Counted from the first letter of the stretch, positions 31,255 to 46,986 are shown. The stretch: 64,000 bases of DNA from Candidatus Shapirobacteria bacterium (GCA_041665485.1 JBAYIT010000001.1:277156-341155), one strand, 5' to 3'. Program-made: numbers and translations. Notes: generated by a model not told the origin, from the letters alone.

Positions 31255-31261
31255 TTGGGAT

Positions 31262-31537: not shown

Positions 31538-31539
31538 AA

Positions 31540-31914: not shown

Positions 31915-31969
31915 ATCAAAAAAGGAGCCCTCCTAAGAGAACCCCTTTTAAGTCAAAGTAATTGTCGTT

Positions 31970-32445: not shown

Positions 32446-32610
32446 TTAGCGGAGAAGACGTTCGAGGACAATTCCGAGAAGAATTCCGGTAATACCACCG
32501 CCAACACCGCCGATGAGCCAAGCTACATCACCTTGCAAACCGACTGCGAAAGCGACGAACCAGCCGATCAGGAGCCCCCCGAAGGCGAACCTACCAAGAT
32601 TGTTTTTCAT
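32446..32610 (-). CDS. Small glycine-zipper membrane protein, GlsB/YeaQ/YmgE-like (paralog 3 of 3)
   Basis: MKNNLGRFAFGGLLIGWFVAFAVGLQGDVAWLIGGVGGGITGILLGIVLERLLR; ATG at 32610 inside track ORF 32446..32697. Confidence 0.5.
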   Translation of the reverse strand: MKNNLGRFAFGGLLIGWFVAFAVGLQGDVAWLIGGVGGGITGILLGIVLERLLR

Positions 32611-32618
32611 TTTGTCCC

Positions 32619-32795
32619 CTATCCGTTGATGATTCGATCTACGATGACCCCAATTGCCGCTGCTACAATGCCACCGACTACGCCGGAGAGGAACCATTCC
32701 AGTCCCTTTAGGTTAACTATTGCTCCGACGATCCAGCCGATGAGAATTCCGATTTTTATGAGCTGTGTCATTCGTGGATCAGTCCCATAGTCCAT
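32619..32795 (-). CDS. Small glycine-zipper membrane protein, GlsB/YeaQ/YmgE-like (paralog 2 of 3; below track length cutoff)
   Basis: Hand-translated: MDYGTDPRMTQLIKIGILIGWIVGAIVNLKGLEWFLSGVVGGIVAAAIGVIVDRIING*; 58 aa, not in the ORF track. Confidence 0.5.
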   Translation of the reverse strand: MDYGTDPRMTQLIKIGILIGWIVGAIVNLKGLEWFLSGVVGGIVAAAIGVIVDRIING

Positions 32796-32796
32796 T

Positions 32797-33024
32797 TTAT
32801 TTTCTCCTTCCGTAGTAGAGAACTAGATTTGGTGCGAGGCCGATCATGAAACCGATGGCCAAATCGGAGTCTAACCCGACTACTAGTACAAGACCGAAGA
32901 CTAACCCAGTCAGGACGATGTACCCCACAAAGTTGACGAAAAATCCAACCTTGCGAAGTATCCAGCCGACTGCTAGGCCGGCAAAAACACCAGTGGTGGT
33001 GGGAAACAATAATAGAACTTCCAC
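32797..33024 (-). CDS. Small glycine-zipper membrane protein, GlsB/YeaQ/YmgE-like (paralog 1 of 3)
   Basis: (GTG)EVLLLFPTTTGVFAGLAVGWILRKVGFFVNFVGYIVLTGLVFGLVLVVGL...; AAGGAAG Shine-Dalgarno 7 nt upstream of GTG. Confidence 0.5.
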   Translation of the reverse strand: MEVLLLFPTTTGVFAGLAVGWILRKVGFFVNFVGYIVLTGLVFGLVLVVGLDSDLAIGFMIGLAPNLVLYYGRRK

Positions 33025-33169
33025 TCTTTATCTTCCTTTCTTCTGTTTTTTCCGCTCAAACTACAGCAGAGATCGAGGTGTGGCGAGCACACTCCGGTTT
33101 CTGCCGTAGCTTTTCCATTGCTCTCTTGTAAAAGATCCGGTTAGCTGGCCGATTGGATTGGTGCGTTTA

Positions 33170-33198
33170 CCAAAAAACCGGCCATTTCTTGGCCGGTT
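33170..33198 (-). terminator. Rho-independent terminator-like hairpin on minus strand (AACCGGCCA-loop-TGGCCGGTT followed by TTTTTTGG)
   Basis: Minus-strand reading aaccggccaagaaatggccggttttttgg; lies ~150 nt upstream of the YeaQ-like gene cluster with no annotated upstream minus-strand gene. Confidence 0.5.
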
Positions 33199-33381
33199 AT
33201 AAATCTTGAAGCGAATGAGTCAAAAAGCTTAAAGAGCTCCGATATTTGACTCTAAGGTAGCTTCAAGCAAGGCGTTGTTAGATTAACTAACTTAGCTTAC
33301 TAGAACAACCTATAATAACATGGTGGAATGGATTTGTCAACTGTTTGTTGCTAAAAAAATATTTTTTAGTAATATGGATGT

Positions 33382-33684
33382 ATGGATATATTAGGTGTTG
33401 TTGTAGAAAAATTGAGACCAAAGTCACCTGCAGAGAAGCGGATGAGTGATTGGGTTAAAGAGCAAAAGAGGAGTGGGAGAGAGGCGGTGGCCGCAGCTCA
33501 GAGGGACTTTATTGATGTAGTGACAGCGCCGATTGCTCCGCCAACAGTAGAAGAGTTAATGGATACGGAGAGGGCAATTAAAGCCGATGCAACTATTGAT
33601 GAAGTAAACAGAAGGTTAGATGCTCAAGTGGAAGTGAGGAGGCATGTGGCACAAATAAGACAAATTGTTGGTAGTAAGAAATAA
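33382..33684 (+). CDS. Hypothetical protein
   Basis: ORF with ATG start, 100 aa, charged/helical; no recognisable motif. Confidence 0.4.
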   Translation: MDILGVVVEKLRPKSPAEKRMSDWVKEQKRSGREAVAAAQRDFIDVVTAPIAPPTVEELMDTERAIKADATIDEVNRRLDAQVEVRRHVAQIRQIVGSKK

Positions 33685-33686
33685 TA

Positions 33687-33956
33687 ATGGCCGACATTAC
33701 AGTAAAACAACTTTTGGAACTTCAACGGCAACAGGCGGAAGAGTCGTATCAGGGTGTTGATGATTTGGAGATTGCCAAGGAAGAACTAGGGATAAAGGAT
33801 GGCACAGATCCTGACTTTGTGGCTTTGTGCCAAAAGTTGCAGGTAGAGATGGATGGCCAAAACGTTTTGAAGGTTATTGGCTTTGCAAGGAGGTTTGTGG
33901 ATATTTTTTTGGGGATTAAATATGAGGGAAAGCCGTTAGAAGAGAAGGTTGTCTAG
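33687..33956 (+). CDS. Hypothetical protein
   Basis: 89 aa ORF, 2 nt after preceding stop (operon-like packing). Confidence 0.4.
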   Translation: MADITVKQLLELQRQQAEESYQGVDDLEIAKEELGIKDGTDPDFVALCQKLQVEMDGQNVLKVIGFARRFVDIFLGIKYEGKPLEEKVV

Positions 33957-33963
33957 AATATTA

Positions 33964-35031
33964 ATGGTGGCTAAAGATGTTTTTGAATTGCGGATGGTTG
34001 GTGGTAAGGGTGTTGGTGAGGCAGAGTTGGCCAGTATGAAAGCTGATTTTGAGGCAGAAAGAGAGATGGTTAGAGCGATGCCGGGGGAAGGCTTAGAACC
34101 AGCAAAATTGTCGGAGGGGACAATGCGGGTATTGAGGGGTATGGAGGCCAGTGCCCGTGAATTTTTAATCGAAAAAATTCAGAGACTGGGAATTGAGGGA
34201 TATGAGCCGGACTTATTGCCTGTTCAATATGTTCGCCATGCTTCCAGCGATTTGGGTTTTTTGGGGATGAGCAGTGAGGGTGGATATGTTGATGTTTATA
34301 ACCGACTAGTGGTTGGGGTAGATCATGGTCCGTTGTCGACGATAGCTACTCTTGGTCACGAATTAAGCCATGCTGCGGCTAGAACCAGATTGGTGTTGTA
34401 TATGACCAAAGGAGTTGATGGAAAAGTTGAACTAAAAAGCGGAGCCCACGTAAAGGGTCTTAATTTACCTTCTGGCCAAAGGTGTTCGGAGATTTGTATT
34501 TTGCCCGAAGAATTGGTAGCAACTATGGATGAGGTAGATTTTATGGGCGAGCGAGTGGCCAGAGAATTACCCCAATTATACGTAAAAGAGAGAGCTAAAA
34601 TTGACGACGAGGTAAATGGTTTTTTAGTTAGAGACGCAATAGAGGAAATGAGGAGAGGTGGCTGGGAGATTCCGCCTGATTTAGATTTAGTGCCTTTTGT
34701 TCAGGAGTTGGGGGTTAGCGAAAGTGGTGATGAGTGCCTATTGTTGCTGGATGGGGTTATTATTAGAAGGTACTTATTGGGTTTGAGAATATCTGAACTG
34801 ATCGGACGTTTTCAGAAAGGGGAAGGTTTTACCAAGGAGGATTATTATCGTGTAGGTAGATGTGTTTTAGATAGGGACAGATATGTACAGGGTAATGATG
34901 TTCATCGGATGTTGGTTAAGATTTTTGGTGGTAAGGAATCAAAGGTGTTATTTACGGCTGGAGATGGTTTGGCTGATTTAGAGAAGGTACACGAGTTGGT
35001 GTCTAAGAAAGAATTGGAATATAAAATTTAA
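33964..35031 (+). CDS. Hypothetical protein with HExxH motif (possible zincin-like)
   Basis: ...VGVDHGPLSTIATLGHELSHAAARTRLVLYM...; track start 33949 is TTG overlapping previous stop, ATG at 33964 preferred. Confidence 0.45.
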   Translation: MVAKDVFELRMVGGKGVGEAELASMKADFEAEREMVRAMPGEGLEPAKLSEGTMRVLRGMEASAREFLIEKIQRLGIEGYEPDLLPVQYVRHASSDLGFLGMSSEGGYVDVYNRLVVGVDHGPLSTIATLGHELSHAAARTRLVLYMTKGVDGKVELKSGAHVKGLNLPSGQRCSEICILPEELVATMDEVDFMGERVARELPQLYVKERAKIDDEVNGFLVRDAIEEMRRGGWEIPPDLDLVPFVQELGVSESGDECLLLLDGVIIRRYLLGLRISELIGRFQKGEGFTKEDYYRVGRCVLDRDRYVQGNDVHRMLVKIFGGKESKVLFTAGDGLADLEKVHELVSKKELEYKI

Positions 35032-35082
35032 AGATTGAGGGTGCCAATAGAAGAAATTTATATTTTGCTGTAAAATGGGTTT

Positions 35083-35808
35083 ATGACAAAAACAAATCGT
35101 GGTGGAGAGGGATTTGGGGGATATGTTGATGGTTTAAATGATGTAGATATTGCTCCAGGGAGACCGGGGGCGTTAGGTGGGGCGGTTGACTATGTGATTC
35201 AGAAAGCTGGTTTGGAGGAAGTATTAGACGGGGAAATGTTGGTAACACCGGATAGACACAAGGAGGCGGTTTCGTATTTACTTGATGTTCAGAGAGGGGC
35301 GGGGCAACCGGCGGTGTTGCACTTGGTGGCGCCAACTGGTGATGATCAAGCAAATAGGAGGGGTGAACAAGGTACGGCTAGTTCGATGGCTTTACAGGTA
35401 ATAAAATTAGCTAGAAAGGTGAAGCAATGTGGGGGAGATTGGAATACTGAGAGACAATTAGTTGGCGGTTCGCCGAGACTGGAAATTGAGGTGCCGTTTG
35501 ATCCAAAGGATTTTAATACGACGTTGGGGTTAGAACTAGGTACTATTGAGGACGTGCTAGCCAACGGAGGAGTAGAAGGTAAAGATCCGATTAAAGAAAC
35601 TCGTGATTGGCAGAGAAAAATAATGTTGGATGGGAGAAATTATGCTTTGCCGCCAGAAGTTCCTGAAGGAGGATGTGTAGTGGTTGATAGATTAAAAGGT
35701 GAAAACGGAGGAAAATTGGTGGTTTTTGGCTCGGAGAGCTTTATTGGGGTGGTTGCTATTGGTGTGGTTGGAAAACCCAATCCAGAAGTGTTTTTGGTGG
35801 AGAGGTAA
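35083..35808 (+). CDS. Hypothetical protein
   Basis: 241 aa ORF, Gly-rich N-terminus (MTKTNRGGEGFGGYVDG); no recognisable family. Confidence 0.45.
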   Translation: MTKTNRGGEGFGGYVDGLNDVDIAPGRPGALGGAVDYVIQKAGLEEVLDGEMLVTPDRHKEAVSYLLDVQRGAGQPAVLHLVAPTGDDQANRRGEQGTASSMALQVIKLARKVKQCGGDWNTERQLVGGSPRLEIEVPFDPKDFNTTLGLELGTIEDVLANGGVEGKDPIKETRDWQRKIMLDGRNYALPPEVPEGGCVVVDRLKGENGGKLVVFGSESFIGVVAIGVVGKPNPEVFLVER

Positions 35809-35821
35809 AATTTAGAGCTTT

Positions 35822-36478
35822 TTATTGTTGCGCTTTGCCACCGTACCAAGCTGAGTTGTCTCTGACGTAAGCAAAGGCCTTGTCGGCAGATGTTTGATCA
35901 AGTATTCTGGTGTCTCGGCCAAGTCTTAATTCGTGAAGACGCATTTGGTTTTGAGGGTTTGCACTGGCGATTTCAGCTTCAATTTCGGTTTGTTCGTGTT
36001 GAGAACGGCGCAAAAATTGGTGAGCAAGCTCACGGGTGCATTGGACGAGAGAAGCATCAAGAGGCTGTGTGCCAGTCAAGTAATCGAGAGCTCTTTGGAA
36101 GCCGTTTCGGGAAGTAGTTAATTCTTCAACAGTTGCTTCGGGTTGTTTGATACCAAAATCTAAGATGGCAATTTCGGCTTGGAATAGTTCGGCCAATTGG
36201 GTTGGGTCTGGAGTGGGGAAGTCTGTATTTGGTAGAACCAAGTCAGATGGCATGGGGAATCTGATGTCGTGGAAAGCTATTGACCGTTCTAGAGCTTTGG
36301 AGTTAGATTCAGGGAGGGTTCCTGCTTTGGCTTGAGACAGAAGGTCCCATTCGTCTTTTAAGGTGGTGGCTCCGTAAACCGTAACTTCTTGAGCACCGAA
36401 ACAGGCAGTTTGGGCTTGGAGTAATCTGGTTTGGAGTTGATCAATAGTTGGTTGTGGAGCTTCTGGTGTTTGTGTCAT
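35822..36478 (-). CDS. Hypothetical protein
   Basis: 218 aa ORF on minus strand, convergent with upstream block. Confidence 0.4.
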   Translation of the reverse strand: MTQTPEAPQPTIDQLQTRLLQAQTACFGAQEVTVYGATTLKDEWDLLSQAKAGTLPESNSKALERSIAFHDIRFPMPSDLVLPNTDFPTPDPTQLAELFQAEIAILDFGIKQPEATVEELTTSRNGFQRALDYLTGTQPLDASLVQCTRELAHQFLRRSQHEQTEIEAEIASANPQNQMRLHELRLGRDTRILDQTSADKAFAYVRDNSAWYGGKAQQ

Positions 36479-36512
36479 ATAAGAAATATATCATAAAAAT
36501 AGTAAAAGTGAG

Positions 36513-36575
36513 GTAAAATGGATTAATGGACTACAAAATTGGTTTTTTTGGGGTGAAGAGTTGGGAGAGGGAGGC
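36513..36575 (+). pseudogene. Orphan copy 1 of the 5' end (start codon + ~17 codons) of the 2-hydroxyacid dehydrogenase gene found intact at 41574
   Basis: gtaaaatggattaatggactacaaaattggtttttttggggtgaagagttgggagagggaggc ~ 41561-41625 (MDYKIGFFGVKSWEREA); diverges afterwards. Confidence 0.7.
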
Positions 36576-36593
36576 AGGGATTAAAACGAAGTA

Positions 36594-36622
36594 TTGACAA
36601 TATGTGGTGTTGGGTATATACA
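36594..36622 (+). promoter_or_regulatory. Sigma70-like promoter for brnT copy 1 (TTGACA-N17-TATACA)
   Basis: TTGACA at 36594-36599, 17-nt spacer, TATACA 36617-36622, ATG 11 nt downstream (short leader). Confidence 0.5.
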
Positions 36623-36633
36623 TATAACAGACA

Positions 36634-36927
36634 ATGAGATTTGATATTTCAACTGATTTTGAGTGGGATGCCGGTAATGAAGACAAAAATTGGCTAAAGC
36701 ATCAAGTTTCAAAGTCGGAATGCGAAGAGATTTTTTTTGACCCAGAAAAAATCGAATTAAGAGATTCAGAGCATTCTAAAATAGAAGACAGATTAATCGT
36801 TTTGGGAAAAACCAAAAAGGAAAAATTATTGTTTGTGGTTTATACCAGAAGAAAGGACAAAATTAGAGTTATTTCGGCAAGGACGGCCGATAAAAAGGAA
36901 GAAAAATTATATGAAAAAAATGCTTAA
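36634..36927 (+). CDS. brnT: BrnT-family ribonuclease toxin (DUF497)
   Basis: MRFDISTDFEWDAGNEDKNWLKHQVSKSECEEIFFDPEKIELRDSEHSKIEDRLIVLGKTKKEKLLFVVYTRRKDKIRVISARTADKKEEKLY. Confidence 0.7.
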   Translation: MRFDISTDFEWDAGNEDKNWLKHQVSKSECEEIFFDPEKIELRDSEHSKIEDRLIVLGKTKKEKLLFVVYTRRKDKIRVISARTADKKEEKLYEKNA

Positions 36928-37171
36928 ACTACCAAAATTTAAGAACGAGGACGAAGAAAGAGATTTTTGGGCCAAAATTAGTTTGGCGGACTATTTTGAG
37001 GCTAAAGATTTTCAAAAAGTAAGCTTTCCTAATTTAAAGCCAACGTCGGAGGCAATTTCTATCAGGATACCTCAATATATGTTAGTAAGGATAAAAGAGA
37101 GAGCAAACGAGATAAACGTGCCGTATCAGACACTGATTAAAACCTATATTCAAGCGGGATTAGTGGCGTAG
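36911..37171 (+). CDS. brnA: BrnA-family antitoxin (RHH/CopG-like)
   Basis: MKKMLKLPKFKNEDEERDFWAKISLADYFE...SIRIPQYMLVRIKERANEINVPYQTLIKTYIQAGL; overlaps brnT by 17 nt. Confidence 0.65.
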   Translation: MKKMLKLPKFKNEDEERDFWAKISLADYFEAKDFQKVSFPNLKPTSEAISIRIPQYMLVRIKERANEINVPYQTLIKTYIQAGLVA

Positions 37172-37413
37172 TGTAAAATGGATTAATGGACTACAAAATT
37201 GGCTTTTTTGGAGTTAAGAGTTGGGAGAGGGAGGCGATTGAGAAAGAAATAATTAGATTGCCTTCGTTTGGGGTGGGGATATTTGAAAAAGAAGTCCAGG
37301 ATGATGTGGAATTGTGGTTGATGAGAGAGTTCTTTCCTGGTGGGAGTGTTCCTGTTTTAAGTGGGCAGGAAATGTCGGTGGCAAAAGGTGTGGAGGAGTT
37401 GTATGGATTGTAG
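37165..37413 (+). pseudogene. Orphan copy 2 of the dehydrogenase 5' end (~45 codons then divergent)
   Basis: ggcgtagtgtaaaatggattaatggactacaaaattgg...gatgtggaatt matches 41553-41705 incl. 20 nt upstream of ATG; ORF MDYKIGFFGVKSWEREAIEKEIIRLPSFGVGIFEKEVQDDVELW then unrelated tail. Confidence 0.7.
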
Positions 37414-37493
37414 CTAAGAGGCCATGTTGTTTTGTTAACTTTTTTGTCGGTTTGGTTAAAAAGGGGAGGAGGTGAAGATGTTAAAATGAGCCA

Positions 37494-38621
37494 ATGAATG
37501 GGGATGGAAATCGAGAAAAGCCACTGCAAGCACTCGATGTGGTTACATACATAAGTAGAGGGGATAGATTAGGTCTAGAAGAATTGGAAAGGTGTGGAGG
37601 TAAGAATTGGAAAGTTGTGGCGGAAGTTGTGGCTCAAATCGGCGAGGATAAAAATATCGCTTGGTTTGGGAGCGGGGCGCATGAAGTGTTAGCCGGTGTG
37701 GCCGATGAGAGAATGAGAGGTGCGGTTGCTTATGATGTTGAGCATTACAGCTTGAGGAGTGTTTCTGATCTTGATCTAATAGTGGAAGATGATGTTGATT
37801 TGGTTGGCTTAATGGGAAAGATTGCTAGTATGGGTAACTGTTGCTTATTGACGCCAGAGGCTAATGGAGTTAGCCGAAACAGATTGGAATTGACGTTGGA
37901 TAACGGGTTAATAGTAGAAATTTCGCAGGTGGAAAATATCGAGGAACAAATGAAGAAAGTGATGTTGAGGCATCAAGGAGTAGGTTTAAGGCCGGTGTTG
38001 GAAAGTGGTAGAGTGGTGGGAGTAGAGGTTCTTGATGAAACTGATTATTTGGCAGACAATCCGGCTCCGTTTCGGGTGACTTCAATAAACCCGAATTGGG
38101 AGGGGAGTATAAAGTGGGGCGATTTGAAAATGGCCTTAAAGGCAGTGGCTTGGATGGCTCAAAAAGGCGGATCAGTGAAAAGTATTGATTGGAGAGTAAT
38201 TGGCGAGAAATTAATTGGTGAGGTAGAGGGTGGCCAAATTGGAGGAGAACAAATTGACTATATTAGGCAAAAAATGGCCAAGATGATGACGGATACATAT
38301 GCTTACAATCGGTTTGATTTTTGGCAGGCAATGGTGTTTAAAGTACCAGCGGTGGCGGTTTTTAGCCCAACGATGGCTAATGGGTTTATGGACCATCCGG
38401 AATGGCAGAATGGGATTTTACTGAAACTGCTGGCAGATGAGACGAGTGGAAGTAAAATTGAGGTTGAGCCACAAGTAATGTGGGAAGGGGTGATTGGGTT
38501 GATGGTAGCAGAAGCTACCAATGATGTTGACTTGGGGGTAGTGATAAGCGAATTGGCTGAAAATTGGCCAGATAAACATCGTGTTGATTGGGGTAAAATA
38601 AGTTCTGAAGATGGCAGATAA
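37494..38621 (+). CDS. Hypothetical protein
   Basis: 375 aa ORF; AAGGGGAGGAGG upstream; no recognisable family. Confidence 0.5.
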   Translation: MNGDGNREKPLQALDVVTYISRGDRLGLEELERCGGKNWKVVAEVVAQIGEDKNIAWFGSGAHEVLAGVADERMRGAVAYDVEHYSLRSVSDLDLIVEDDVDLVGLMGKIASMGNCCLLTPEANGVSRNRLELTLDNGLIVEISQVENIEEQMKKVMLRHQGVGLRPVLESGRVVGVEVLDETDYLADNPAPFRVTSINPNWEGSIKWGDLKMALKAVAWMAQKGGSVKSIDWRVIGEKLIGEVEGGQIGGEQIDYIRQKMAKMMTDTYAYNRFDFWQAMVFKVPAVAVFSPTMANGFMDHPEWQNGILLKLLADETSGSKIEVEPQVMWEGVIGLMVAEATNDVDLGVVISELAENWPDKHRVDWGKISSEDGR

Positions 38622-39852
38622 AAAGAAATTATTTGAAATGTTGCCGGCGACGAAAGAGTACTTTTTGACTTGGTTGCCAGCGATTTTAGATAAAGTAGAT
38701 AGAGGTGAGTCGGCGCAATTGGTGCATTTACCCTATACCGGAGCAACAGCTTTAATGAAGTTTTTTTTAGAGTGTGGCGAGATGGTGGTTGATGATTGGC
38801 AAGAAAGATGTGGCCAAAAAAAGTGGTTGTGGCTGGATTTGGAAAAAGAGGTTTTTGAGGTGGCTGACTTAAGTGGAGGAGAGGTGTATTTGGAAAAAGA
38901 AGTAACGGCTAAAATTAAAGAATGGAGCTGGGGTGAACAAAAACAGGTGGTGGTGGTGATAGATGAGGCGGCAAGATTAATTGATGGCAAGCCGGAATGG
39001 AGAAAGAGACTATATGATTGGTGGCGGATTAACCCAATGAAAATAAGCTTTGTTTATATTGTGGGCAGGGAAGTGGAGCCGGAAGCAACGAAAAAAAACT
39101 TGGGTTATCTTTGGACCAGTTTTTGGCAGGGGAGAGTTTGGATGCCCTTCCAAGACAAGCAAAGCCTAAGTAACACGGTTTCGAACCAGAAAAAGTGGCA
39201 TGGAATAAAAATAAGTAATAAAGAAGTGGAGCAAGTTGCTGGGGTGTGGGGAGGCTGGCCGTGTTTGGCGAGAGTATTATTGAGGCGACTTAACGATGAA
39301 AATCGAGCAGTGGCGGTGGGGTGGTTGGATGAGCCGAATTCGGAAAAAACAATAAATGAAGTTTTGGCAGACAAAGAGATTGACGGGTATTTTGCCGATT
39401 TGTGGCAGGCGATGGCTAAAGAGAGCCAAGATAATTTTTGGAGTGAGGACAAAAGCGAGTATGTGGTAAAAACTGGATTATGGGCAAGGAATGGGGGCAA
39501 GTGGGAGCTTAAAGTGCCCTGGTTTGGGGCATATGTAAAGCAAATTCAGGCTAAGAGTAACCCGGTGGTGGGGGAGAGTAAGGGAAAAATAAAGTGGAAT
39601 GGGAAAAATTTGGCTGACTTTTTAACCGCCAATGAATTGGCGATAATGGAGTTGTTGTGGGCCAGGGGCGGCGGGGTGGTGAGCCGGGAGGAATTGGCAA
39701 AAAGAGTCTGGGGAGAAAAGATGACGGAGAAATATTCGGATTGGGCGATTGATAAAATGCTGGCTCGGTTGAGAAAAAAACTAGGCGATAGTAGCCAGCG
39801 GCGGTGGATTCAGGTGGTAAAAGGCAGAGGTGTGCGACTAAATGTCCAGTAA
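38611..39852 (+). CDS. Putative transcriptional regulator: N-terminal ATPase-like region + C-terminal OmpR/PhoB-type winged helix
   Basis: C-terminus LTANELAIMELLWARGGGVVSREELAKRVWGEKMTEKYSDWAIDKMLARLRKKLGDSSQRRWIQVVKGRGVRL (trans_reg_C-like); N-terminal VVVVIDEAARLIDG (Walker-B-like). Confidence 0.55.
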   Translation: MADKKKLFEMLPATKEYFLTWLPAILDKVDRGESAQLVHLPYTGATALMKFFLECGEMVVDDWQERCGQKKWLWLDLEKEVFEVADLSGGEVYLEKEVTAKIKEWSWGEQKQVVVVIDEAARLIDGKPEWRKRLYDWWRINPMKISFVYIVGREVEPEATKKNLGYLWTSFWQGRVWMPFQDKQSLSNTVSNQKKWHGIKISNKEVEQVAGVWGGWPCLARVLLRRLNDENRAVAVGWLDEPNSEKTINEVLADKEIDGYFADLWQAMAKESQDNFWSEDKSEYVVKTGLWARNGGKWELKVPWFGAYVKQIQAKSNPVVGESKGKIKWNGKNLADFLTANELAIMELLWARGGGVVSREELAKRVWGEKMTEKYSDWAIDKMLARLRKKLGDSSQRRWIQVVKGRGVRLNVQ

Positions 39853-39910
39853 AGGTCAAGATTGTTGGTGAATAGTGTTTTATTATAGGGCTGTTAAAGG
39901 TTAAATATAT
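39841..39910 (+). repeat. 70-bp inter-cassette repeat, copy A
   Basis: aatgtccagtaaaggtcaagattgttggtgaatagtgttttattatagggctgttaaaggttaaatata; begins at the stop of the preceding gene. Confidence 0.8.
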
Positions 39911-39911
39911 T

Positions 39912-40223
39912 ATGAGACATGATACATTAAATGCTATTGTTGGTTTTTCTATGTTTATTACTGGTGCTGTTGCGGGTACAATTTCAACAGTAGATATCGC
40001 GGTAAATAGGATGGGTTTTTTAGGTTTGCCTACCTGTAGAACTCAAGGCAATGCGTCTCTTCCAGACGTAGGATTTCCAGGGGATGCTTCTGAGCGAGGA
40101 ATTAGTGCTGATGCCAATGGAACTCGGGTAAGTTATGTTTGGAATGGAACTGAATATGAGGTTTATTTTGGTCCAGGTTGCCAGATGTCAAAACTGTCAA
40201 CTTCTCCAGCGCCTGTTAAATAG
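39912..40223 (+). CDS. Hypothetical small secreted protein (N-terminal signal/TM helix)
   Basis: MRHDTLNAIVGFSMFITGAVAGTISTVDIAVN...; 103 aa. Confidence 0.4.
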   Translation: MRHDTLNAIVGFSMFITGAVAGTISTVDIAVNRMGFLGLPTCRTQGNASLPDVGFPGDASERGISADANGTRVSYVWNGTEYEVYFGPGCQMSKLSTSPAPVK

Positions 40224-40255
40224 TGTAAAGGAAAAAATGAATACTTATCAAATGT

Positions 40256-40324
40256 CCAGTAAAGGTCAAGATTGTTAGGGAATAGTGTTTTATTATAGGG
40301 CTGTTAAAGGTTAAATATAAAAAT
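40256..40324 (+). repeat. 70-bp inter-cassette repeat, copy B
   Basis: aatgtccagtaaaggtcaagattgttagggaatagtgttttattatagggctgttaaaggttaaatata (2 mismatches vs copy A). Confidence 0.8.
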
Positions 40325-40628
40325 GAGTGAGAGAAACATTGGTTTTCAACCAGAACCCAAACTTACAACTAGAGACCGATTAGAGTCGCTAATTAATGGT
40401 GGGGATTCGGTTTGGCTGGCGTTTTTGAATTTGCTTTTTATTTTCATAACTCCGGAAGCCTATGAACAAATTGGGCCTTGTGGGTTACTTCCGGTTCTTA
40501 CCCTTACAATAGCGGTTGCTGAGGATATATCACATAATTATAGTAAGGGTTGTAGACGGATTATTGAAGAGAAGAGATCTGTGGAGGCTATGGTGAATCG
40601 TGAAATGTCCAGTAAAGGTCAAGATTAA
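40323..40628 (+). CDS. Hypothetical small membrane protein
   Basis: 101 aa; hydrophobic core VWLAFLNLLFIFITP; C-terminal MSSKGQD* is encoded by the repeat. Confidence 0.4.
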   Translation: MSERNIGFQPEPKLTTRDRLESLINGGDSVWLAFLNLLFIFITPEAYEQIGPCGLLPVLTLTIAVAEDISHNYSKGCRRIIEEKRSVEAMVNREMSSKGQD

Positions 40629-40670
40629 ATATGAATAGTATTTTAATATAGGGTATTGAAAGTTAATTAA
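40603..40670 (+). repeat. 70-bp inter-cassette repeat, copy C (degenerate)
   Basis: aatgtccagtaaaggtcaagatt-aaatatgaatagtattttaatatagggtattgaaagttaat. Confidence 0.6.
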
Positions 40671-40675
40671 GAAAA

Positions 40676-41176
40676 ATGATAAACCCAATTGAGGCTAGTT
40701 GCCAAGGTCGTCCGAAATGGTGTAAATATGAATCTGGTCCTTATCATGATTATGCTGGTTACTATTTTCATGTTTTGACAGACAGATTTATTGGGTTGAG
40801 TCGATTTATTCCCAGAAGGGAATGGGAAATAATAATTGGTGGTGCTCGTTGGGTTGACAAAAAATGGGAAGATGGAGATGGAGTTCTTTGGGGTGTTGAG
40901 CTGTGGAAAGATGTAATTGACCATGCTTGCGACGGTCTTTTTCTGCGTAGGTTTGGCAAGCAAGTCATAAGAATAGAGGTTAAGGATTTGGGGTCGGTTG
41001 GACGAAAGTTGAGTTGTCAAGATTATAACGCAGGAAATTGGTCTGGAGATGAGTGGAGTGTGGGAGACAGTGATCAAAATGACGTGGTTTGGAGCAACTA
41101 TTGGGATAAGATGCTGAAGTTGGATAACTTTAGGGACGAATTTCAAGAAGCGTTGGAGCGAAGGAGGGAGAAATGA
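40676..41176 (+). CDS. Hypothetical protein
   Basis: 166 aa ORF, Trp-rich; no recognisable family. Confidence 0.4.
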   Translation: MINPIEASCQGRPKWCKYESGPYHDYAGYYFHVLTDRFIGLSRFIPRREWEIIIGGARWVDKKWEDGDGVLWGVELWKDVIDHACDGLFLRRFGKQVIRIEVKDLGSVGRKLSCQDYNAGNWSGDEWSVGDSDQNDVVWSNYWDKMLKLDNFRDEFQEALERRREK

Positions 41177-41559
41177 GTGAGAGAATTAGGGTTGTTGACT
41201 TGCCAAGGGGGTTTACGCCAACGGATGTACCGGTTAAGGTTGTTAAGATCGGATTAGGAGATTGTGGGGTGGTGGTTGAGTGTCCGAAGGTGGGGGTGGC
41301 GGATGTGCGACTTGTGAAGGGAGATTGTGGAATAAATTGGGTTAGTTCTCCTATTTCGTATGGAGATAGGGTGGTGGGGGTGGGGGTGGACGAGGTGCCA
41401 GCAGAACAGCGAGAAGAAATGTGGAAGGGATTATTGACGAGGGCGAGGGAGGGTGGTGGGGATAGATACTTATTAAACGCTCTGCCGGAATTATTGGTTA
41501 AATTGGGATATGTTTGGGACGGAAAAACAGATTTTGAAGGAGTTAGTCTACGGCGGTAG
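41173..41559 (+). CDS. Hypothetical protein
   Basis: 128 aa ORF overlapping previous stop by 4 nt (ATGA). Confidence 0.4.
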   Translation: MSERIRVVDLPRGFTPTDVPVKVVKIGLGDCGVVVECPKVGVADVRLVKGDCGINWVSSPISYGDRVVGVGVDEVPAEQREEMWKGLLTRAREGGGDRYLLNALPELLVKLGYVWDGKTDFEGVSLRR

Positions 41560-41573
41560 TGTAAAATGAACTA

Positions 41574-42560
41574 ATGGACTACAAAATTGGTTTTTTTGGA
41601 GTGAAGAGTTGGGAGAGGGAGGCGATTGAAAGGGAAATAATCAGATTGCCTTCGTTTGGGGTGGGAATATTTGAAAAAGAGGTGCAGGACGATGTGGAAT
41701 TAGCCTCTAAATACGATGTAATTTCGACCTTCATTTATTCGAATTTAACCAAGGACGTTTTGAAAAAGTTGCCGAATTTAAAAATGGTGGCGGCTAGATC
41801 AACGGGAACAGATCATGTGGACTGTGATGAGTGCATGAAAAGGTCAATTGTGGTGAAAAATGTGCCGGAATATGGGTCTCGAACGGTGGCAGAATACGCG
41901 ATTGCCCTGATGATGGCGATAACCAAAAAAATAATTCCGGCCCACCAGTCGGTGGAGGATGGAGAATTTAGCCCGGAAGGGTTGACGGGGATTGATCTAT
42001 TTGGTAAGACTTTGGGAGTAGTGGGAGTGGGTAAGATTGGTGAGAATGTGGTTAAACTAGGGCGAGCACTGGGAATGAAAGTAGTTGGGGTGGAGAGAAA
42101 GAGAGATGAAAAGCTGGCCAAGAGATTGGGATTTAGGTATGTGGAACTAGAGGAGTGCTTAAAGATAGCAGATGTAATTAGCTTGCATGTGCCGTCAATT
42201 CCGGCAACATATCATCTGATTAACAAACAAAATATTAAATTAATGAAAAAAGGCTCGTATTTGATTAATACTTGTCGGGGGCCGGTGGTGGAATCGTCGG
42301 CTTTGGTGTGGGCCCTTAATAATAAAATTTTGGCGGGAGTGGGCTTGGATGTGGTGGAGGAGGAAAACAAAGTAGAGAGTATATCGGTGGTGATGACTGA
42401 TGAGACAAAAAAGTCGGATTTGCAGGATATCTTAAGTTTTCATTTGCTACGTGATAGAGACGATGTGGTGATGACGCCCCATAATGCTTTTAATACCAGG
42501 GAAGCAATTGGGCGGATTGTGGCAACAACGGTGGATAATATAATACAGTTTATCAAGTGA
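41574..42560 (+). CDS. D-isomer-specific 2-hydroxyacid dehydrogenase (D-lactate/phosphoglycerate dehydrogenase family)
   Basis: NAD-binding GKTLGVVGVGKIGENVVKLGRALGMKVVGVER; catalytic region ...HVPS...TCRGPVV...MTPHNAF. Confidence 0.85.
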   Translation: MDYKIGFFGVKSWEREAIEREIIRLPSFGVGIFEKEVQDDVELASKYDVISTFIYSNLTKDVLKKLPNLKMVAARSTGTDHVDCDECMKRSIVVKNVPEYGSRTVAEYAIALMMAITKKIIPAHQSVEDGEFSPEGLTGIDLFGKTLGVVGVGKIGENVVKLGRALGMKVVGVERKRDEKLAKRLGFRYVELEECLKIADVISLHVPSIPATYHLINKQNIKLMKKGSYLINTCRGPVVESSALVWALNNKILAGVGLDVVEEENKVESISVVMTDETKKSDLQDILSFHLLRDRDDVVMTPHNAFNTREAIGRIVATTVDNIIQFIK

Positions 42561-42660
42561 CAAGTTAGAAAGTTTATCAAGTGACAAGTTAGAAAGTTTA
42601 TCAAGTGACAAGTTAGAAAGTTTATCAAGTTGCAAGTTCGTCAAGTTAAAAGTTTGTCTA
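42548..42660 (+). repeat. Tandem 24-bp repeat (gtttatcaagtgacaagttagaaa) x3 perfect + degenerate copies, first copy includes the dehydrogenase stop codon
   Basis: Units at 42548, 42572, 42596, degenerate from 42620. Confidence 0.85.
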
Positions 42661-42663
42661 GTT

Positions 42664-43008
42664 GTGGGGTTTGAAAGATTTGAGGAAATTTTAAGTTGGA
42701 AAAAAGCGAGAGAGTTGAATATTGTTGTTTATAAGTTATTTGGAACTTGTAGGGATTTTTCGTTTAAAGACCAGATTTGCAGAGCTTCGGTCTCAATAAT
42801 GAATAACATTGCTGAAGGGTATGAAAGAAAAACGAACTTGGAATTCAAAAGATTTTTGTACATTTCGAAAGGTTCGTGTGGTGAAGTTAGATCAATGCTG
42901 TATTTGGCCAATGATTTGGGTTATATTGATGGTGGAATGATGGTGAATTTGTCGGATATGTGTATTGAGATTTCAAAAATGCTTTCTGGTTTGATAAAAT
43001 CTTTGTAG
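42664..43008 (+). CDS. Four-helix-bundle protein (family typically encoded inside 23S rRNA intervening sequences)
   Basis: ...VVYKLFGTCRDFSFKDQICRASVSIMNNIAEGYERKTNLEFKRFLYISKGSCGEVRSMLYLANDLGYI... Confidence 0.65.
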   Translation: MGFERFEEILSWKKARELNIVVYKLFGTCRDFSFKDQICRASVSIMNNIAEGYERKTNLEFKRFLYISKGSCGEVRSMLYLANDLGYIDGGMMVNLSDMCIEISKMLSGLIKSL

Positions 43009-43009
43009 G

Positions 43010-43049
43010 TTTACTTGATAAACTTTATAACTTTAAACTTGTAACTTAT
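43010..43049 (+). promoter_or_regulatory. Conserved AT-rich upstream element TTTACTTGATAAACTTTATAACTTT (shared with rplJ upstream region)
   Basis: gtttacttgataaactttataactttaaacttgtaacttatATG; gene-sense copy upstream of rplJ: ttttacttgataaactttataaacttttaactttataactaaacATG. Confidence 0.4.
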
Positions 43050-44090
43050 ATGAAACCAATATTGATCTGTGGCGGTGTTGGAACTAAAATGTGGCCGGAG
43101 TCGAGACCAGAGAAGCCGAAACATTTTTTGCCGTTGATTGATGATAAGTCGCTTTTTAGGTTGAATTATGAAACTTTGTTGAAAAAATTCAAGCCGGAAG
43201 AAATTTTTGTACAAACCACCGAATTTCAAAAGGGGTTAGTGAAGACTGAGGCACCAGAGATCCCCGAAAAGAATATTTTTTTGGAGCCGGAAGTAAGAAA
43301 TACTGGTCCGGCAATTGGACTGACGGCGGCCTTGTTGTCAAGAATGGGTTATGGGGATGAGCCGTTTGTATTGATTCAAGTTGATGATTTAAGAGAACCC
43401 GATGATAGATTTTTGGAAATGATAGAAGTGACGGGAAAGATGGCATTGGAGAGCGATAAATATATAACTGGTGGTTTTAAGCCAGAGAGAGTGGTGCGGG
43501 GGGTTGATTATTTGGTAAAAGGGAGACTCCTTTCTAAGGAGAATGGAATTGTGGTTTATGAAGTAGCAGATTATATAGACAGAACTGAAACGGAAAAGAT
43601 TGAGAAGTATCTTGGTTCAGAGGATTTGCTGTTGCATACAAATCACACAACGATGACCCCAAATAATTATCTGAAAATGTACCGTGAATTAAGAAGTGAT
43701 TGGTATGAACCTTTGGCGGCAATTGTTGCTGGTGGTGATGTTAATGAAAACTTTATGAAGATGACGAAGGGGCCTCAAGAAGAGGTAACACCGACGATGC
43801 ATCGAAGTGGACGGTCTATTGTGGTGGAGATACCATTTAAATGGGTGGATTTTGGAACATGGGAATCGGTAGCAATTTATCAAGAGACAAGAGATAAGAA
43901 GCCAGAGTTAAGAGCTAAGATTGAAATAGAAGCAAGTAATAATTTTGTCAGGATGAGTGATCCGAATAAGCCGGTGGCGTTGATTGGAGTCAGTGATTTA
44001 GTGGTGGTGGATACGCCAAATGGATTATTGATTTGTAAAAAAGATCAGTCGGGAAGAGTGGGTGAAGTAGTGAAAGCATTAGAAGCATGA
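43050..44090 (+). CDS. Sugar-1-phosphate nucleotidyltransferase, mannose-1-phosphate guanylyltransferase-like (paralog 1)
   Basis: MKPILICGGVGTKMWPESRPEKPKHFLPL (ICGGxGTxxWP signature), NTGPAIGL. Confidence 0.7.
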   Translation: MKPILICGGVGTKMWPESRPEKPKHFLPLIDDKSLFRLNYETLLKKFKPEEIFVQTTEFQKGLVKTEAPEIPEKNIFLEPEVRNTGPAIGLTAALLSRMGYGDEPFVLIQVDDLREPDDRFLEMIEVTGKMALESDKYITGGFKPERVVRGVDYLVKGRLLSKENGIVVYEVADYIDRTETEKIEKYLGSEDLLLHTNHTTMTPNNYLKMYRELRSDWYEPLAAIVAGGDVNENFMKMTKGPQEEVTPTMHRSGRSIVVEIPFKWVDFGTWESVAIYQETRDKKPELRAKIEIEASNNFVRMSDPNKPVALIGVSDLVVVDTPNGLLICKKDQSGRVGEVVKALEA

Positions 44091-45112
44091 ATTTAGTATT
44101 AATCTGTGGGGGGACGGGGACAAAGATGTGGCCGGAGTCAACTCCCGACAAACCAAAACAGTTTTTGCCGTTTATAGATGGCAAGTCGACTCTAAGAGTT
44201 AATTTTGAGCGGTTAGCCAAATTTGTCTATCTTAATAAAATTTGGGTACTGACGACGAAGGATTTGGCGCCGTTGGTAAAACTGGAGTTACCGGAGGTTG
44301 ATGTAGATCATTATGTGATTGAACCAGCCAGGAAAAATCATGGGCCGGCAATTGGTTTGTTATCGACAAGATTAGCCAAAATTGACCCAAATGAGCCATT
44401 TATGATTGTCCAAACGGATGTAATTCGGGAGCCAGAAACTGCTTTTCGGGAGATGGTGATGTTGGCCGAAGAGGTGGTTAATCGAACCGGTAAATTGATT
44501 ACTGCTGGTTATAGGGCTAAAGAAATGGTGGCAGGGGTAGATTATATGGAAATTGAGGAATTGAAAAGTAATCATCATGTGACTTATGGGAAGGTTAAAA
44601 AGTGGTTAACTAGGGACAAAGTTGTGGAAATTAAACGGGCAGTAAAATTGGGAAAGGCCTATGTTCATGCGACCCATATTTGTTGGAGGCCAGGGTTGAT
44701 GTTGGAAGCAATAAAAGAACTTAAACCGGATTGGTGGAATTGTCTTAAAGACGTTTTGGAGGCAGAAAGCCAGTATCTAAAGATGGAGCCGGGGTCGATT
44801 GAAAATGAAATTATTAGTCACAAAATTAAGGGAGGTTATGTGATAGAAATGCCATTTGAATGGCATGACTTGGGGACGTGGGCGTCTGTGGCAATTTATC
44901 AAGAGACAAGAGATAAGAAGCCAGAGTTAAGAGCTAAGATTGAAATAGAAGCAAATAATAATTTTGTTCGGGTGAGTGATGAAAAAAAGCCAGTGGCATT
45001 GATTGGAGTCAGTGATTTGGTGGTGGTGGATACGCCAAATGGATTATTGATTTGTAAAAAAGATCAGAGCGGGAGAGTGGGGGAGGTGGTGAAGGAGTTG
45101 GAAGGATTATAA
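44087..45112 (+). CDS. Sugar-1-phosphate nucleotidyltransferase, mannose-1-phosphate guanylyltransferase-like (paralog 2)
   Basis: MNLVLICGGTGTKMWPESTPDKPKQFLPF; last ~75 aa almost identical to paralog 1. Confidence 0.7.
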   Translation: MNLVLICGGTGTKMWPESTPDKPKQFLPFIDGKSTLRVNFERLAKFVYLNKIWVLTTKDLAPLVKLELPEVDVDHYVIEPARKNHGPAIGLLSTRLAKIDPNEPFMIVQTDVIREPETAFREMVMLAEEVVNRTGKLITAGYRAKEMVAGVDYMEIEELKSNHHVTYGKVKKWLTRDKVVEIKRAVKLGKAYVHATHICWRPGLMLEAIKELKPDWWNCLKDVLEAESQYLKMEPGSIENEIISHKIKGGYVIEMPFEWHDLGTWASVAIYQETRDKKPELRAKIEIEANNNFVRVSDEKKPVALIGVSDLVVVDTPNGLLICKKDQSGRVGEVVKELEGL

Positions 45113-45209
45113 TGAATTATGAAAGATAGAAATCGGGTAAGTAAATTTATTTTGAATAAAGTGGAATTAAGGAAATTAGTGGCCGGAATAAAAGAGTTTA
45201 GAAAGTCGT

Positions 45210-46082
45210 TTAAGTTTGATTTTTGATTAGGTGGGGAAGGGAGGCGGAAATAAGTATTAGTAAACCGCCGATAATAATGCCTAAATTTAGCGACTCATTA
45301 AAAAATAAAATGCCAAAAAAGACACCAAACAAAATTTCGGCCAGGCCGATTAGACTGCCAATGCTGGCATCGAAGTGCCGATAGCCTTCAATGGCGGCCC
45401 AGTTAGCCAAGAGCATACTTGAGGCATAACCGAGTTGGGCCAGCCAAGAAATTGGTTGATTAAGTGATGGTAGTGGGTCGTGAAAAAGTGAACTTAGAAA
45501 ACCATTGGCAATGACTTGGATGACAAGATAACCGATCATGATTTGAAATTCAGGATAACCGCCAACTAGTTTTCTGGGAATAATAACGGTGGCGCTACCC
45601 ATAAGCCCGGCAAGAATAGTAAGAATGGCAGGAAGAATTTGAGACGGGGAGAGATTAAGGTGATAAATAAAGAGCAGGCCAACAACAGCAAGAAGGAGGT
45701 TGAAAATTTTTGTTGGAGTTAATTTTTCTTGGAAGACTATTTTGCCAATAAAATAGCCACCAATAACGAGAGCGGCGTAAAAAAAGAGAGTAGCAGTGCC
45801 AATACTTAGGTGTTTAAAGCCAAAAAAATAGGGTGCTTGGTTGAGGCCACCGGCCATGGCGATAAGGGCAAGCCAGGGGAGATCTCTTTTAACTAGGGGT
45901 TTAAAAATATGAAATTTAAGATTAATAAGGATAATGACTATTAGTAGAAATAGACCTCGAGTCCAGGCCTGGGAAAACTCGCCAAAAGATGAGGACATAA
46001 GGCGGGACCAGATGCCATAGGTGCCGTAGAAAAATGCCGAAGTTAGAATAAGACGGGCTCCTTTATTTTGATTCATGGCCAA
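45210..46082 (-). CDS. EamA/DMT-family transporter (10-TM drug/metabolite transporter)
   Basis: 290 aa, ~10 hydrophobic helices in two EamA-like halves. Confidence 0.7.
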   Translation of the reverse strand: MAMNQNKGARLILTSAFFYGTYGIWSRLMSSSFGEFSQAWTRGLFLLIVIILINLKFHIFKPLVKRDLPWLALIAMAGGLNQAPYFFGFKHLSIGTATLFFYAALVIGGYFIGKIVFQEKLTPTKIFNLLLAVVGLLFIYHLNLSPSQILPAILTILAGLMGSATVIIPRKLVGGYPEFQIMIGYLVIQVIANGFLSSLFHDPLPSLNQPISWLAQLGYASSMLLANWAAIEGYRHFDASIGSLIGLAEILFGVFFGILFFNESLNLGIIIGGLLILISASLPHLIKNQT

Positions 46083-46114
46083 TTATCTCTTAAAAATAGT
46101 TTATAATCTAACTG

Positions 46115-46942
46115 ATGTCCGAAATGACAGACAACGATGTTAAATTACTTAAGCCGTACGGTTTGGAGGCGGAAGAAACTCTAATTTACCTGTATTTGCT
46201 TGAAAATAGCGAATTGTCGGCCTTAAAAATTAGTCGAGGAGTAAAGATGCCAAGAACAAAGGTGTATCGACTACTGGACAAATTAATTGAGAAAAGATTG
46301 GTGGTGCAGGAATTAGAAAGCACCGGTTTTAAGTTTAGGGGAAGCGACCCGTCGGAGTTGGGGAGAATGGTTTCCAGAAAAGAAAATGAAATTGTAGATT
46401 TAAGGGAAATGTTGCCGGAGGTAATAAAGAGATTAGAAAGTAAGTTGGGGGTAAGTAGGGGCGGGTCAAAAATTAAATATTATCGGGGGACGAAAGGATT
46501 ATCGCAGGTAAATTGGAATTTATTGGAAGCTAAGGGAGAAATCTTGAGTTTCGAAGTAGCCACGGCTGATGCCTATATGCCACAAGCAGAGGCAGAAAAG
46601 CTTAGGAGGGCTTTGGTAGAAGGGAAAATTTTGACAAGAACTATTACCAACAAAGAGAAAATAGAACCGTTTACTAAAGTGACAGAACTGGTGGAGAAGT
46701 GGTGGGAAATCAGAAATGTGACAACTGAAGTGTTGGATATCAAGGCAGATACCTTTATCTATAACGACATTTTTGCGGTATGTAATTATTTGGAAAATGG
46801 CAACGTGTTTTGTTTTGAATTAGAAAACAAACTGGTAGCCCAAATGCAAAGGCAGATGTTTGAAGTAATGTGGAAAACAGCAAGAAAAATGAGGTTGATT
46901 GGTAATGAGGGCAGGGCAGATATTAGATTTAATAATACTTGA
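46115..46942 (+). CDS. TrmB-family transcriptional regulator
   Basis: YGLEAEETLIYLYLLENSELSALKISRGVKMPRTKVYRLLDKLIEKRLVVQ (TrmB-type wHTH) + C-terminal sensor region. Confidence 0.65.
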   Translation: MSEMTDNDVKLLKPYGLEAEETLIYLYLLENSELSALKISRGVKMPRTKVYRLLDKLIEKRLVVQELESTGFKFRGSDPSELGRMVSRKENEIVDLREMLPEVIKRLESKLGVSRGGSKIKYYRGTKGLSQVNWNLLEAKGEILSFEVATADAYMPQAEAEKLRRALVEGKILTRTITNKEKIEPFTKVTELVEKWWEIRNVTTEVLDIKADTFIYNDIFAVCNYLENGNVFCFELENKLVAQMQRQMFEVMWKTARKMRLIGNEGRADIRFNNT

Positions 46943-46986
46943 AAGATAGGAGTTGAATAGGGGGATGATCGGGCTAGAATGAGAGC

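Follow-up and report, generated by a model that had tools for sequence, protein, structure and literature searches.

The closest described counterparts of the locus considered here are the Rhs arrays formed by 'C-terminal displacement' (Jackson et al., 2009; PMC2935791) and the effector-immunity arrays of the Vibrio cholerae type VI secretion system (T6SS), which arise by sequential displacement via homology-facilitated illegitimate recombination (HFIR) and which their authors explicitly liken to integrons (Kirchberger et al., 2017; PMC5361080). We analysed a 64-kb stretch of DNA from an uncultured Candidatus Shapirobacteria bacterium (hereafter the window; all coordinates are window positions), in which the promoter and 5' end of a gene for a D-isomer 2-hydroxyacid dehydrogenase (DH, denoting the intact gene) are found in three direct copies, R1, R2 and R3, all in the same orientation. 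The architecture matches that of the Rhs and T6SS displacement arrays; the host here is a bacterium of the Candidate Phyla Radiation (CPR), and the end concerned is the 5' end of a housekeeping gene. The 9.35 kb that separate DH from its neighbour, an HTH_17 gene, are a fixed relic of at least three stacked insertions, and this stack is probably best explained by sequential homology-anchored insertion with displacement.

As in the orphan arrays of Rhs systems and of contact-dependent growth inhibition (CDI), an intact anchor gene is accompanied by co-oriented truncated anchor fragments of variable length with different acquired cargo; here, the DH ends R1, R2 and R3 are tied to block 0, brnTA and block B, respectively. 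In both cases the newest cargo lies beside the intact gene and homologous recombination without a dedicated recombinase is invoked. Unlike in Rhs/CDI arrays, the anchor is the DH 5' end with its promoter and start codon, so that stubs accumulate upstream, and the cargo consists of free-standing genes with no toxin tip joined to the anchor in frame; the CPR host sets the locus apart from Rhs/CDI and T6SS arrays alike. The fusion of a polymorphic toxin tip to the anchor, with a cognate immunity gene, is not seen here, the cargo being made up of separate open reading frames (ORFs). Rhs core fragments have been reported to be identical within a locus, whereas the copies described here have diverged by 5-8%. 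With the Vibrio T6SS arrays the locus shares a conserved flanking anchor, successive insertions that shift older modules away, alleles that come from different strains rather than from duplication, and the lack of an integrase. The Vibrio model displaces the effector and keeps the immunity gene, whereas here only a gene-start stub would be displaced, and the selective rationale of immunity retention is inapplicable.

The region from the HTH_17 gene to the end of DH is composed as follows.

31970-32224, minus strand: HTH_17/MerR-type small DNA-binding gene (Pfam HTH_17, 3.4e-11), left border of the ancestral site
32225-32349: remnant of the ancestral HTH_17-DH spacer, comprising the conserved region upstream of HTH_17, a motif of the AAGTT type (32312-32337) and, at 32341-32349, the left AAAGTGAGG copy
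32350-36504: block 0, ~4.16 kb, all ORFs orphan, presumably the oldest insert
36505/36513-36575, plus strand: stub R1, DH -21 to +50, ATG at 36526, 17 DH codons, then 6 foreign ones before the stop
36576-37159, plus strand: cassette A, the brnTA type II toxin-antitoxin pair
37160-37313, plus strand: stub R2, DH about -26 to +128, ATG at 37186, 43 DH codons
37314-41547, plus strand: cassette B (block B), a 180-nt leader, p375, p413 and four small ORFs, presumably the newest insert
41548-42560, plus strand: R3 (41548-41701) and the intact DH gene (41574-42560; Pfam 2-Hacid_dh and 2-Hacid_dh_C)

Copy R1 is 95% identical to R2 and, likewise, to R3 over 63 nt, and R2 and R3 are 92% identical over 146-150 nt. 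One 19-mer from the repeat, TAATGGACTACAAAATTGG, occurs exactly three times in the window (0.04 occurrences expected by chance). A preliminary description of the window had placed the copies at 36513, 37165 and 41553, with brnTA, then a 375-aa gene, a winged helix-turn-helix (wHTH) regulator and a small-ORF array between them; the sequence comparison and the 19-mer count confirm the copies, and the content is as stated. The ORF that begins in R2 runs on for 32 foreign codons past its DH part and ends at 37413. Neither the 58 nt after R1 nor the 180 nt after R2 show any similarity to DH, to the rest of the window or to any other locus, and no remnant of the DH 3' end was found behind R1 or R2. 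Contigs 99.8-100% identical to the window were present in four other samples (ERZ27249449 from ENA, 3300037810 from JGI, SRR6484324 and SRR18595301 from Logan). All three junctions are spanned by contigs of the first three samples, and SRR18595301 spans R1 and R2, so an assembly artefact can be ruled out.

Comparison with relatives shows what the site looked like before it was filled. Using DH as the query, we collected 79 related loci from genomes and metagenomes (DH protein identity 56-76%), in which the common gene order is RuvA, RuvB, HTH_17 (on the opposite strand), DH and ManC. Both genes are present in 63 of the loci; the gap between HTH_17 and DH is 108-270 bp in 47 of these, as against 9,349 bp in the window, and wider, up to a maximum of 5.6 kb, in the remaining 16. 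The window cargo genes, including those of block 0, are absent from all 79 loci. Given the proximity of HTH_17 and DH in relatives, the segment 32350-36504 must also be an insert. Taking the three blocks out of the sequence, each with one repeat copy, leaves a spacer of ~137 nt, typical of the family. Visual alignment matches the spacer remnant to the spacers of relatives, that of locus L010 being the clearest case. The spacers that adjoin the HTH_17-DH interval are equally variable among relatives.

The HTH_17 gene gave 67 tblastn matches, mostly at 76-92% identity, and lies beside DH in nearly all loci that reach far enough upstream. It is thus a conserved neighbour of DH and a core gene that belongs to no mobile element; the preliminary description had called it excisionase-like and the closest recombination-related gene. 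The same description had expected an empty site in related genomes, and such sites do exist. It had sought them in the wrong place, with DH directly downstream of 35822-36478; that gene is itself part of block 0, and in the empty state HTH_17 stands next to DH. Its term 'hotspot' is apt on the evolutionary scale, with about one quarter of the related lineages filled. Within the strain it is not, since all available contigs are fixed and show no alternative junction: every contig with the 218-aa gene of block 0, the stub ORF or the small ORF s128 has the same arrangement, and empty or intermediate sites, the former seen in distant relatives, were not found among contigs of close strains.

Relatives also carry a conserved extended -10 element (TGnTAnAAT) 5-6 nt before the DH start codon with no Shine-Dalgarno sequence, and DH is therefore probably a leaderless gene. 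The extended -10 element is intact in R2 (TGTAAAAT) and in R3, and R1 retains a -10-like TAAAAT.

The limits of the repeats bear on the way in which the blocks were joined. Their left limits are similar (-13 to -26 relative to the DH start), whereas the right limits differ (-13, +50 and +128), which argues for variable join points set by one homology anchor rather than for an att core or a target-site duplication. The repeat lengths are 9, ~70 and ~154 nt, a 17-fold variation, the substitutions are scattered across the whole overlap of the repeats, and no exact core is common to all junctions. Mapping of crossovers from the mosaic of R1, R2 and R3 variants was attempted and abandoned, there being too few sites to resolve them.

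Tandem accretion at gene ends is well known from SXT/R391 elements at the 5' end of prfC, from composites of cis-mobilizable elements (CIMEs) and integrative and conjugative elements (ICEs) at fda, and from composites of the staphylococcal cassette chromosome (SCC) SCCmec at rlmH. There, as here, direct gene-end repeats surround tandem cargo, some units lack a recombinase and the gene is restored by the element. These precedents lend some appeal to the view that cassettes A and B are integrase-less integrative elements (similar to CIMEs, SCC-like cassettes or mobilizable genomic islands), whose attP would carry a gene-restoring DH 5' end and which would use a tyrosine or serine recombinase supplied in trans by the genome or a helper element. 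The tandem direct gene-end repeats that bracket the cargo and the restoration of the gene at one side fit this view; diverged element-side alleles would also be expected of a gene-restoring attP, and the upstream junctions of cassettes A and B have GGCG(G)TAGTG in common. We nevertheless consider site-specific accretion improbable. In the known systems there is a dedicated recombinase, together with an att core that does not vary, and neither was found here: the repeats vary in length as stated and have no constant exact core, and no recombinase was found among the scanned genes of the window or noticed on visual inspection of the ORFs in locus L054, which has a 5.6 kb insert at this site. Moreover, no viral contig carries the DH 5' end, public contigs hold no excision product, and the RuvB and RuvC 3' stubs with varied cargo in relatives (see below) would require several different trans-acting recombinases.

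Searches against Pfam, PHROG and PADLOC revealed no integrase, transposase or phage-like gene in the cargo; the only matches were those of brnT, brnA and the p413 wHTH, plus one PHROG of unknown function, also in p413. The lack of a nearby integrase noted in the preliminary description thus extends to all scanned genes of the window, the search being confined to the 64 kb and its flanks. A phage or plasmid origin of the cargo was rejected as well: the only PHROG matches were at the wHTH end of p413, PADLOC gave none, and no viral contig matched either the DH 5' end or the 70-nt repeat of cassette B. The locus does not resemble a transposon or insertion sequence: no transposase and no terminal inverted repeats at the block ends were found, and the duplications range from 9 to 154 nt. 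As in integron arrays, small and mostly orphan cassettes, toxin-antitoxin pairs among them, are stacked in promoter-proximal positions. The locus differs from such arrays in that there is no intI, attI or attC hairpin; the repeats are copies of a gene start, plus a promoter-like 70-mer, with no inverted-repeat structure reported.

The differences among the stubs bear on their origin. In the 43 codons shared by R2 and R3 there are 11 differences, of which 10 are synonymous and one is a conservative nonsynonymous change (K to R). The proportions of synonymous and nonsynonymous differences (pS and pN) are 0.41 and 0.01, giving a pN/pS of 0.02 (binomial P=5e-7 against neutrality); neutral decay in situ at this synonymous distance would be expected to yield ~20 nonsynonymous changes, as estimated from site counts, versus the one observed. 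The differences of R1 are all synonymous (four sites versus R2, two versus R3). Since pN is far below pS, the stubs are functional alleles, foreign or older, joined by recombination between lineages rather than copies made in situ; R1, R2 and R3 are three alleles that evolved in the working genes of different lineages and were joined later.

This divergence excludes a long target-site duplication, slippage and pseudogene decay as sources of the stubs, and makes it highly improbable that the DH 5' region, or DH paralogues, were simply copied in place, whether through slippage, through unequal crossing-over or as a long target-site duplication, and then decayed, with the cargo inserted by unrelated means. 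Such an origin could be suspected from the repeats being direct, in one orientation and close together, and from the tandem ManC paralogues just downstream, whose homogenised 3' end shows that local duplication or gene conversion does occur in the region. Apart from the rejection of neutral decay, the stubs of relatives show the same excess of synonymous differences, no transposase or terminal inverted repeat was found, and the truncation of three full-length paralogues from the same side, with no DH 3' remnant after R1 or R2, would be unparsimonious.

Similar footprints are found at the ends of other core genes, all sampled from one genomic neighbourhood of the relatives. The nearest homologues of BrnT (64-70% identity) are encoded in the RuvC-RuvA spacer of relatives, and inserts in the RuvC-RuvA and RuvB-HTH_17 spacers are bracketed by 3'-end stubs of the adjacent core gene. 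RuvC stubs surround brnTA in L089 and L091, while RuvB stubs surround brnTA and other cargo in L052 (two stubs), L091 (two) and L070. These stubs retain the encoded C-terminal peptide (e.g. ...LIKRTPKGR...) and differ mostly at synonymous positions (pooled pS 0.52, pN 0.08, P = 5e-10). In L052, the outermost RuvB stub still adjoins HTH_17, as RuvB itself does in empty loci. When 659 kb of related loci were scanned blindly for self-similarity, more units bracketed by repeats came to light at the borders of genes, namely in L021, L026, L029, L065 and L072.

Two other features of this neighbourhood deserve mention. In L009/L083 (7285-7356), a RuvB 5'-end stub (EDKLIDPKAKD, in tandem twice) lies within a 293-aa ORF 2.4 kb downstream of the intact ruvB; it is on the 'wrong' side of the gene, and a simple displacement model leaves it unexplained. 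In the window, an antitoxin-PIN (VapBC-like) pair at 31247-31914 occupies the RuvB-HTH_17 spacer, which is only 9-25 nt long in many relatives. No RuvB stub was found at this insert. The same pair is present in the same place in L045 (54-59% identity) and is therefore an older, shared insert.

In the course of events that we favour, incoming DNA from a related lineage would bring its own DH allele with an accessory block immediately upstream of it. At the right-hand end, homologous recombination inside the conserved DH gene would provide the anchor; the left-hand end would join a short way inside the resident DH copy, at -13 in the first event, then at +50 and then at +128, perhaps illegitimately by HFIR of linear DNA. 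An alternative pathway would be a single crossover with a circle carrying the cassette and a DH 5' end. What remains of the resident promoter and 5' end would be a stub, displaced upstream, while the gene would be made whole by the 5' end that came in. Because each event would restore the gene at the right, the newest block should adjoin the intact DH, the order being block 0, then brnTA, then block B. R2 would probably drive transcription into block B, since this stub bears the extended -10 element and the start codon of a seemingly leaderless gene, and R3 would keep DH expressed. The repeats, the empty site in relatives, the allele-like divergence of the stubs, the lack of recombinase genes and the recurrence of the footprint are observed; how the DNA recombined, in which order and whether the stubs act as promoters are what we infer from the sequence.

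Both pathways have laboratory models. Campbell-type single crossover and HFIR in natural transformation have been described (de Vries and Wackernagel, 2002, and Prudhomme et al., 2002, both as cited in PMC5361080). They produce the arrangement seen here, with a truncated 5' copy, the insert and the intact gene, if the incoming homology includes the start of the gene and not its end, and the duplication equals the shared segment. These are mechanisms defined in the laboratory, and from the sequence the two cannot be told apart. The cargo genes all share the extreme strand-specific third-position bias of the host (third-position C of 0.05-0.10 in plus-strand genes), which is consistent with donors that were related genomes carrying the cargo at the same locus and in the same orientation. 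The preliminary description had proposed repeated insertion, site-specific or homology-driven, that duplicates its target each time; repeated insertion is borne out by the empty site, the allele-like stubs and the recurrent footprint, and in its homology-driven form, the site-specific option being left unsupported by the unequal repeats, the missing core and the failure to find a recombinase.

Several observations weigh against this explanation. Public assembled contigs of the strain contain no polymorphism, no deletion variant and no circle or excision junction, and no DH 5' stub was found in the 79 related loci. No locus was found in which one of the three blocks stands immediately before an intact DH without a stub, as a donor would have it. 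Among the relatives that are arranged differently, the nearest has a DH of only 76% identity, so that no event can be dated or polarised directly. The identity of stub to gene, 80-92%, is low for efficient RecA-dependent exchange, and some other process could have left the 9-nt repeat of block 0 as a scar of microhomology. Finally, a pN far below pS would equally result if the 5' end of the intact gene had been replaced by another allele at a later time, and the test therefore establishes recombination between lineages and not its coincidence with each insertion.

The fixation of an identical arrangement in four samples, together with a composition of all blocks that matches the host, would also be expected if the stack had been built in another lineage and R1-A-R2-B-R3 had been imported whole by homologous replacement through a double crossover; in Vibrio, homologous recombination has been proposed to spread complex arrays as units (PMC5361080). 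In that event the window would be uninformative on what happened at this site in the present lineage. Import as a unit seems to us rather unlikely, though less so than site-specific accretion: it merely shifts the question, as the array would still need stub-forming events, and no other lineage with part of the array was found, except for a 2.2 kb contig (L087) with a p375/p413 pair of 67% identity.

CPR bacteria (Patescibacteria) have tiny genomes with few recognisable mobile elements and yet exchange genes by a route that is poorly understood. The stacked blocks at DH, each with a leftover copy of the gene start, suggest that genes were gained through ordinary recombination, with no need for a dedicated mobile-element enzyme. 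A tentative generalization, which we regard as possible rather than probable, is that Shapirobacteria-like CPR bacteria routinely add accessory genes at core-gene borders in an integrase-free, homology-anchored manner that leaves allele-distinct stubs; the locus would then act as a recombinase-free analogue of an integron. The process would probably be fed by natural DNA uptake, and the displaced stub of a leaderless gene would supply a ready-made expression signal to the cassette behind it. Patescibacteria have been reported to carry ComEC/pilus DNA-uptake and recombination genes (PMC12455944); literature searches found no description of such a stub footprint in the CPR literature. The locus also shows that an essential-looking gene can tolerate an insertion into its 5' end without harm, as a new promoter and start codon arrive with the incoming DNA. 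The footprint itself, a gene-end stub with pN far below pS beside orphan cargo, is searchable and marks ordinary recombination anchored on core genes; if the pattern is general, scanning for stubs could map how, and from how far, streamlined bacteria gain accessory genes.

Block 0, which had no matches in Pfam, PHROG or PADLOC, contains the following features.

32446-33024, minus strand: three small membrane ORFs
33170-33340, minus strand: promoter-terminator unit without an ORF
33382-35808, plus strand: four ORFs
35822-36478, minus strand: 218-aa ORF

Its borders carry a repeat of 9-14 nt, AAAGTGAGG[W]AAA[R] (positions 32341 and 36505; two matches versus 0.02 expected); the plain 9-mer AAAGTGAGG occurs only three times in the 64 kb. 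The unit at 33170-33340 comprises a strong promoter-like site, TTGACA-17-TATTAT with TG (11/12 matches), and, ~110 nt past it, a 9-bp GC-rich terminator hairpin, upstream of the three membrane ORFs, which are glycine-rich. It is a candidate small RNA or attenuator leader with no Rfam match; the Rfam scan of 31000-44000 gave nothing significant.

In cassette A, brnT (36634-36927; Pfam BrnT_toxin PF04365, E=1.6e-25) precedes brnA (36911-37171; Pfam CopG_antitoxin PF12441, E=6.5e-25), the last codons of which extend into R2. This order, with its 17-nt overlap, is the organisation of BrnTA type II toxin-antitoxin systems (BrnT of DUF497 and CopG-like BrnA). A BrnT identical to that of the window is assigned to Candidatus Shapirobacteria by NCBI. 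A promoter-like TTGACA-17-TATACA at 36594-36622 was read from the sequence and is not in the output of the promoter scan.

The genes of cassette B are as follows.

37494-38621, plus strand: p375, 375-aa orphan
38611-39852, plus strand: p413, 413 aa, with a C-terminal OmpR/PhoB-type wHTH and an N-terminal domain without an assigned function
39912-40223, plus strand: small ORF s103
40323-40628, plus strand: small ORF s101
40676-41176, plus strand: small ORF s166
41173-41559, plus strand: small ORF s128

The only homologue of p375 (67% identity) among 5.8 billion proteins and 1.84 billion representative proteins is the one in L087, where 156 bp are available upstream of the pair and contain no DH stub. 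A GS...DLD motif in p375 hints at a nucleotidyltransferase and serves as a lead. Beside R2, p375 has a position in which one could expect an integrase. The idea that p375 is a hidden recombinase was dropped: it has the one homologue, the L087 contig is too short to reveal a context, and the AlphaFold model is unusable (predicted local distance difference test score, pLDDT, 39.8). The wHTH of p413 was recognised by Pfam (2.2e-14) and by its match to CpxR in PDB (4.7e-7), and one distant homologue of its N-terminal domain contains Pfam PF24883. Homologues of p413 of 400-460 aa are present in other CPR genomes, whereas no relatives of p375 or p413 were found in IMG/VR. A conserved p375-p413 pair is unsupported, as the gene upstream of the p413 homologue in L088 is unrelated.

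Cassette B also contains a 70-nt promoter-like repeat in three copies on the plus strand (39840-39909, 40250-40319 and 40603-40672), each of which precedes an unrelated small ORF. Its invariant 24 nt, AAATGTCCAGTAAAGGTCAAGATT (three matches versus 0 expected), comprise two GTC(C/A)AG half-sites 11 nt apart; a TATTAT or TAATAT box comes next. Judging from the known behaviour of the OmpR/PhoB family, the repeat is a candidate operator/promoter set private to p413, and the regulator with three putative operator copies before small ORFs is perhaps a small self-contained regulon. Like the DH stubs, the 70-nt repeats bracket cassette-sized units, of 410 and 353 bp. A wHTH protein akin to the C-terminus of p413, followed by a small-ORF array, was also seen in L065 (5116-7500) and L071 (~4148-4279), in a different spacer of the same neighbourhood; that array holds a 161-nt direct repeat of 86% identity. 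The combination of a wHTH regulator and a small-ORF array may thus be a recurrent accessory module.

Arrays of an AAGTT-type motif with a period of ~8 nt (AAGTTAGA AAGTTTAT CAAGTGAC) are found in intergenic positions at the borders of conserved genes (20 matches in the window versus 1.2 expected). In the window they lie at 32312-32337, 42547-42668, 42991-43047 (minus strand), 49674-49717 and 54184-54251, and they were also seen in L054, L053, L010, L084, L017 and L024. Their positions directly after the DH stop codon, after RuvB and, in relatives, before DH coincide with variable spacers. The variable DH-ManC spacer (42554-43041) contains a 114-aa gene of the 23S_rRNA_IVP family (PF05635, 42664-43008), which is flanked by inverted repeats (29-51 nt) of the AAGTT motif and is present at the same position in only one relative (L084).

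Two tandem ManC (NTP_transferase) paralogues with an ATGA overlap follow at 43050-45112, where relatives have a single ManC. They are ~39% identical over most of their length, with identity rising to 86% over the last 269 nt and 93% over the last 96 nt; this homogenised 3' end may reflect gene conversion or another homology-anchored insertion. At the other end of the window, a single ORF of 9,863 aa (54-29645), called as 11,461 aa on a 411 kb ENA contig, lies directly upstream of ruvA, where relatives have RuvC, sometimes with brnTA, in place of the giant ORF. The GC skew, measured over 28000-48000, is +0.3 to +0.6 on the plus strand whatever the orientation of the genes. Among 13 genes, third-position C is 0.05-0.10 in those on the plus strand and third-position G is 0.06-0.09 in most of those on the minus strand; this extreme strand-specific composition points to a very strong mutational strand bias.

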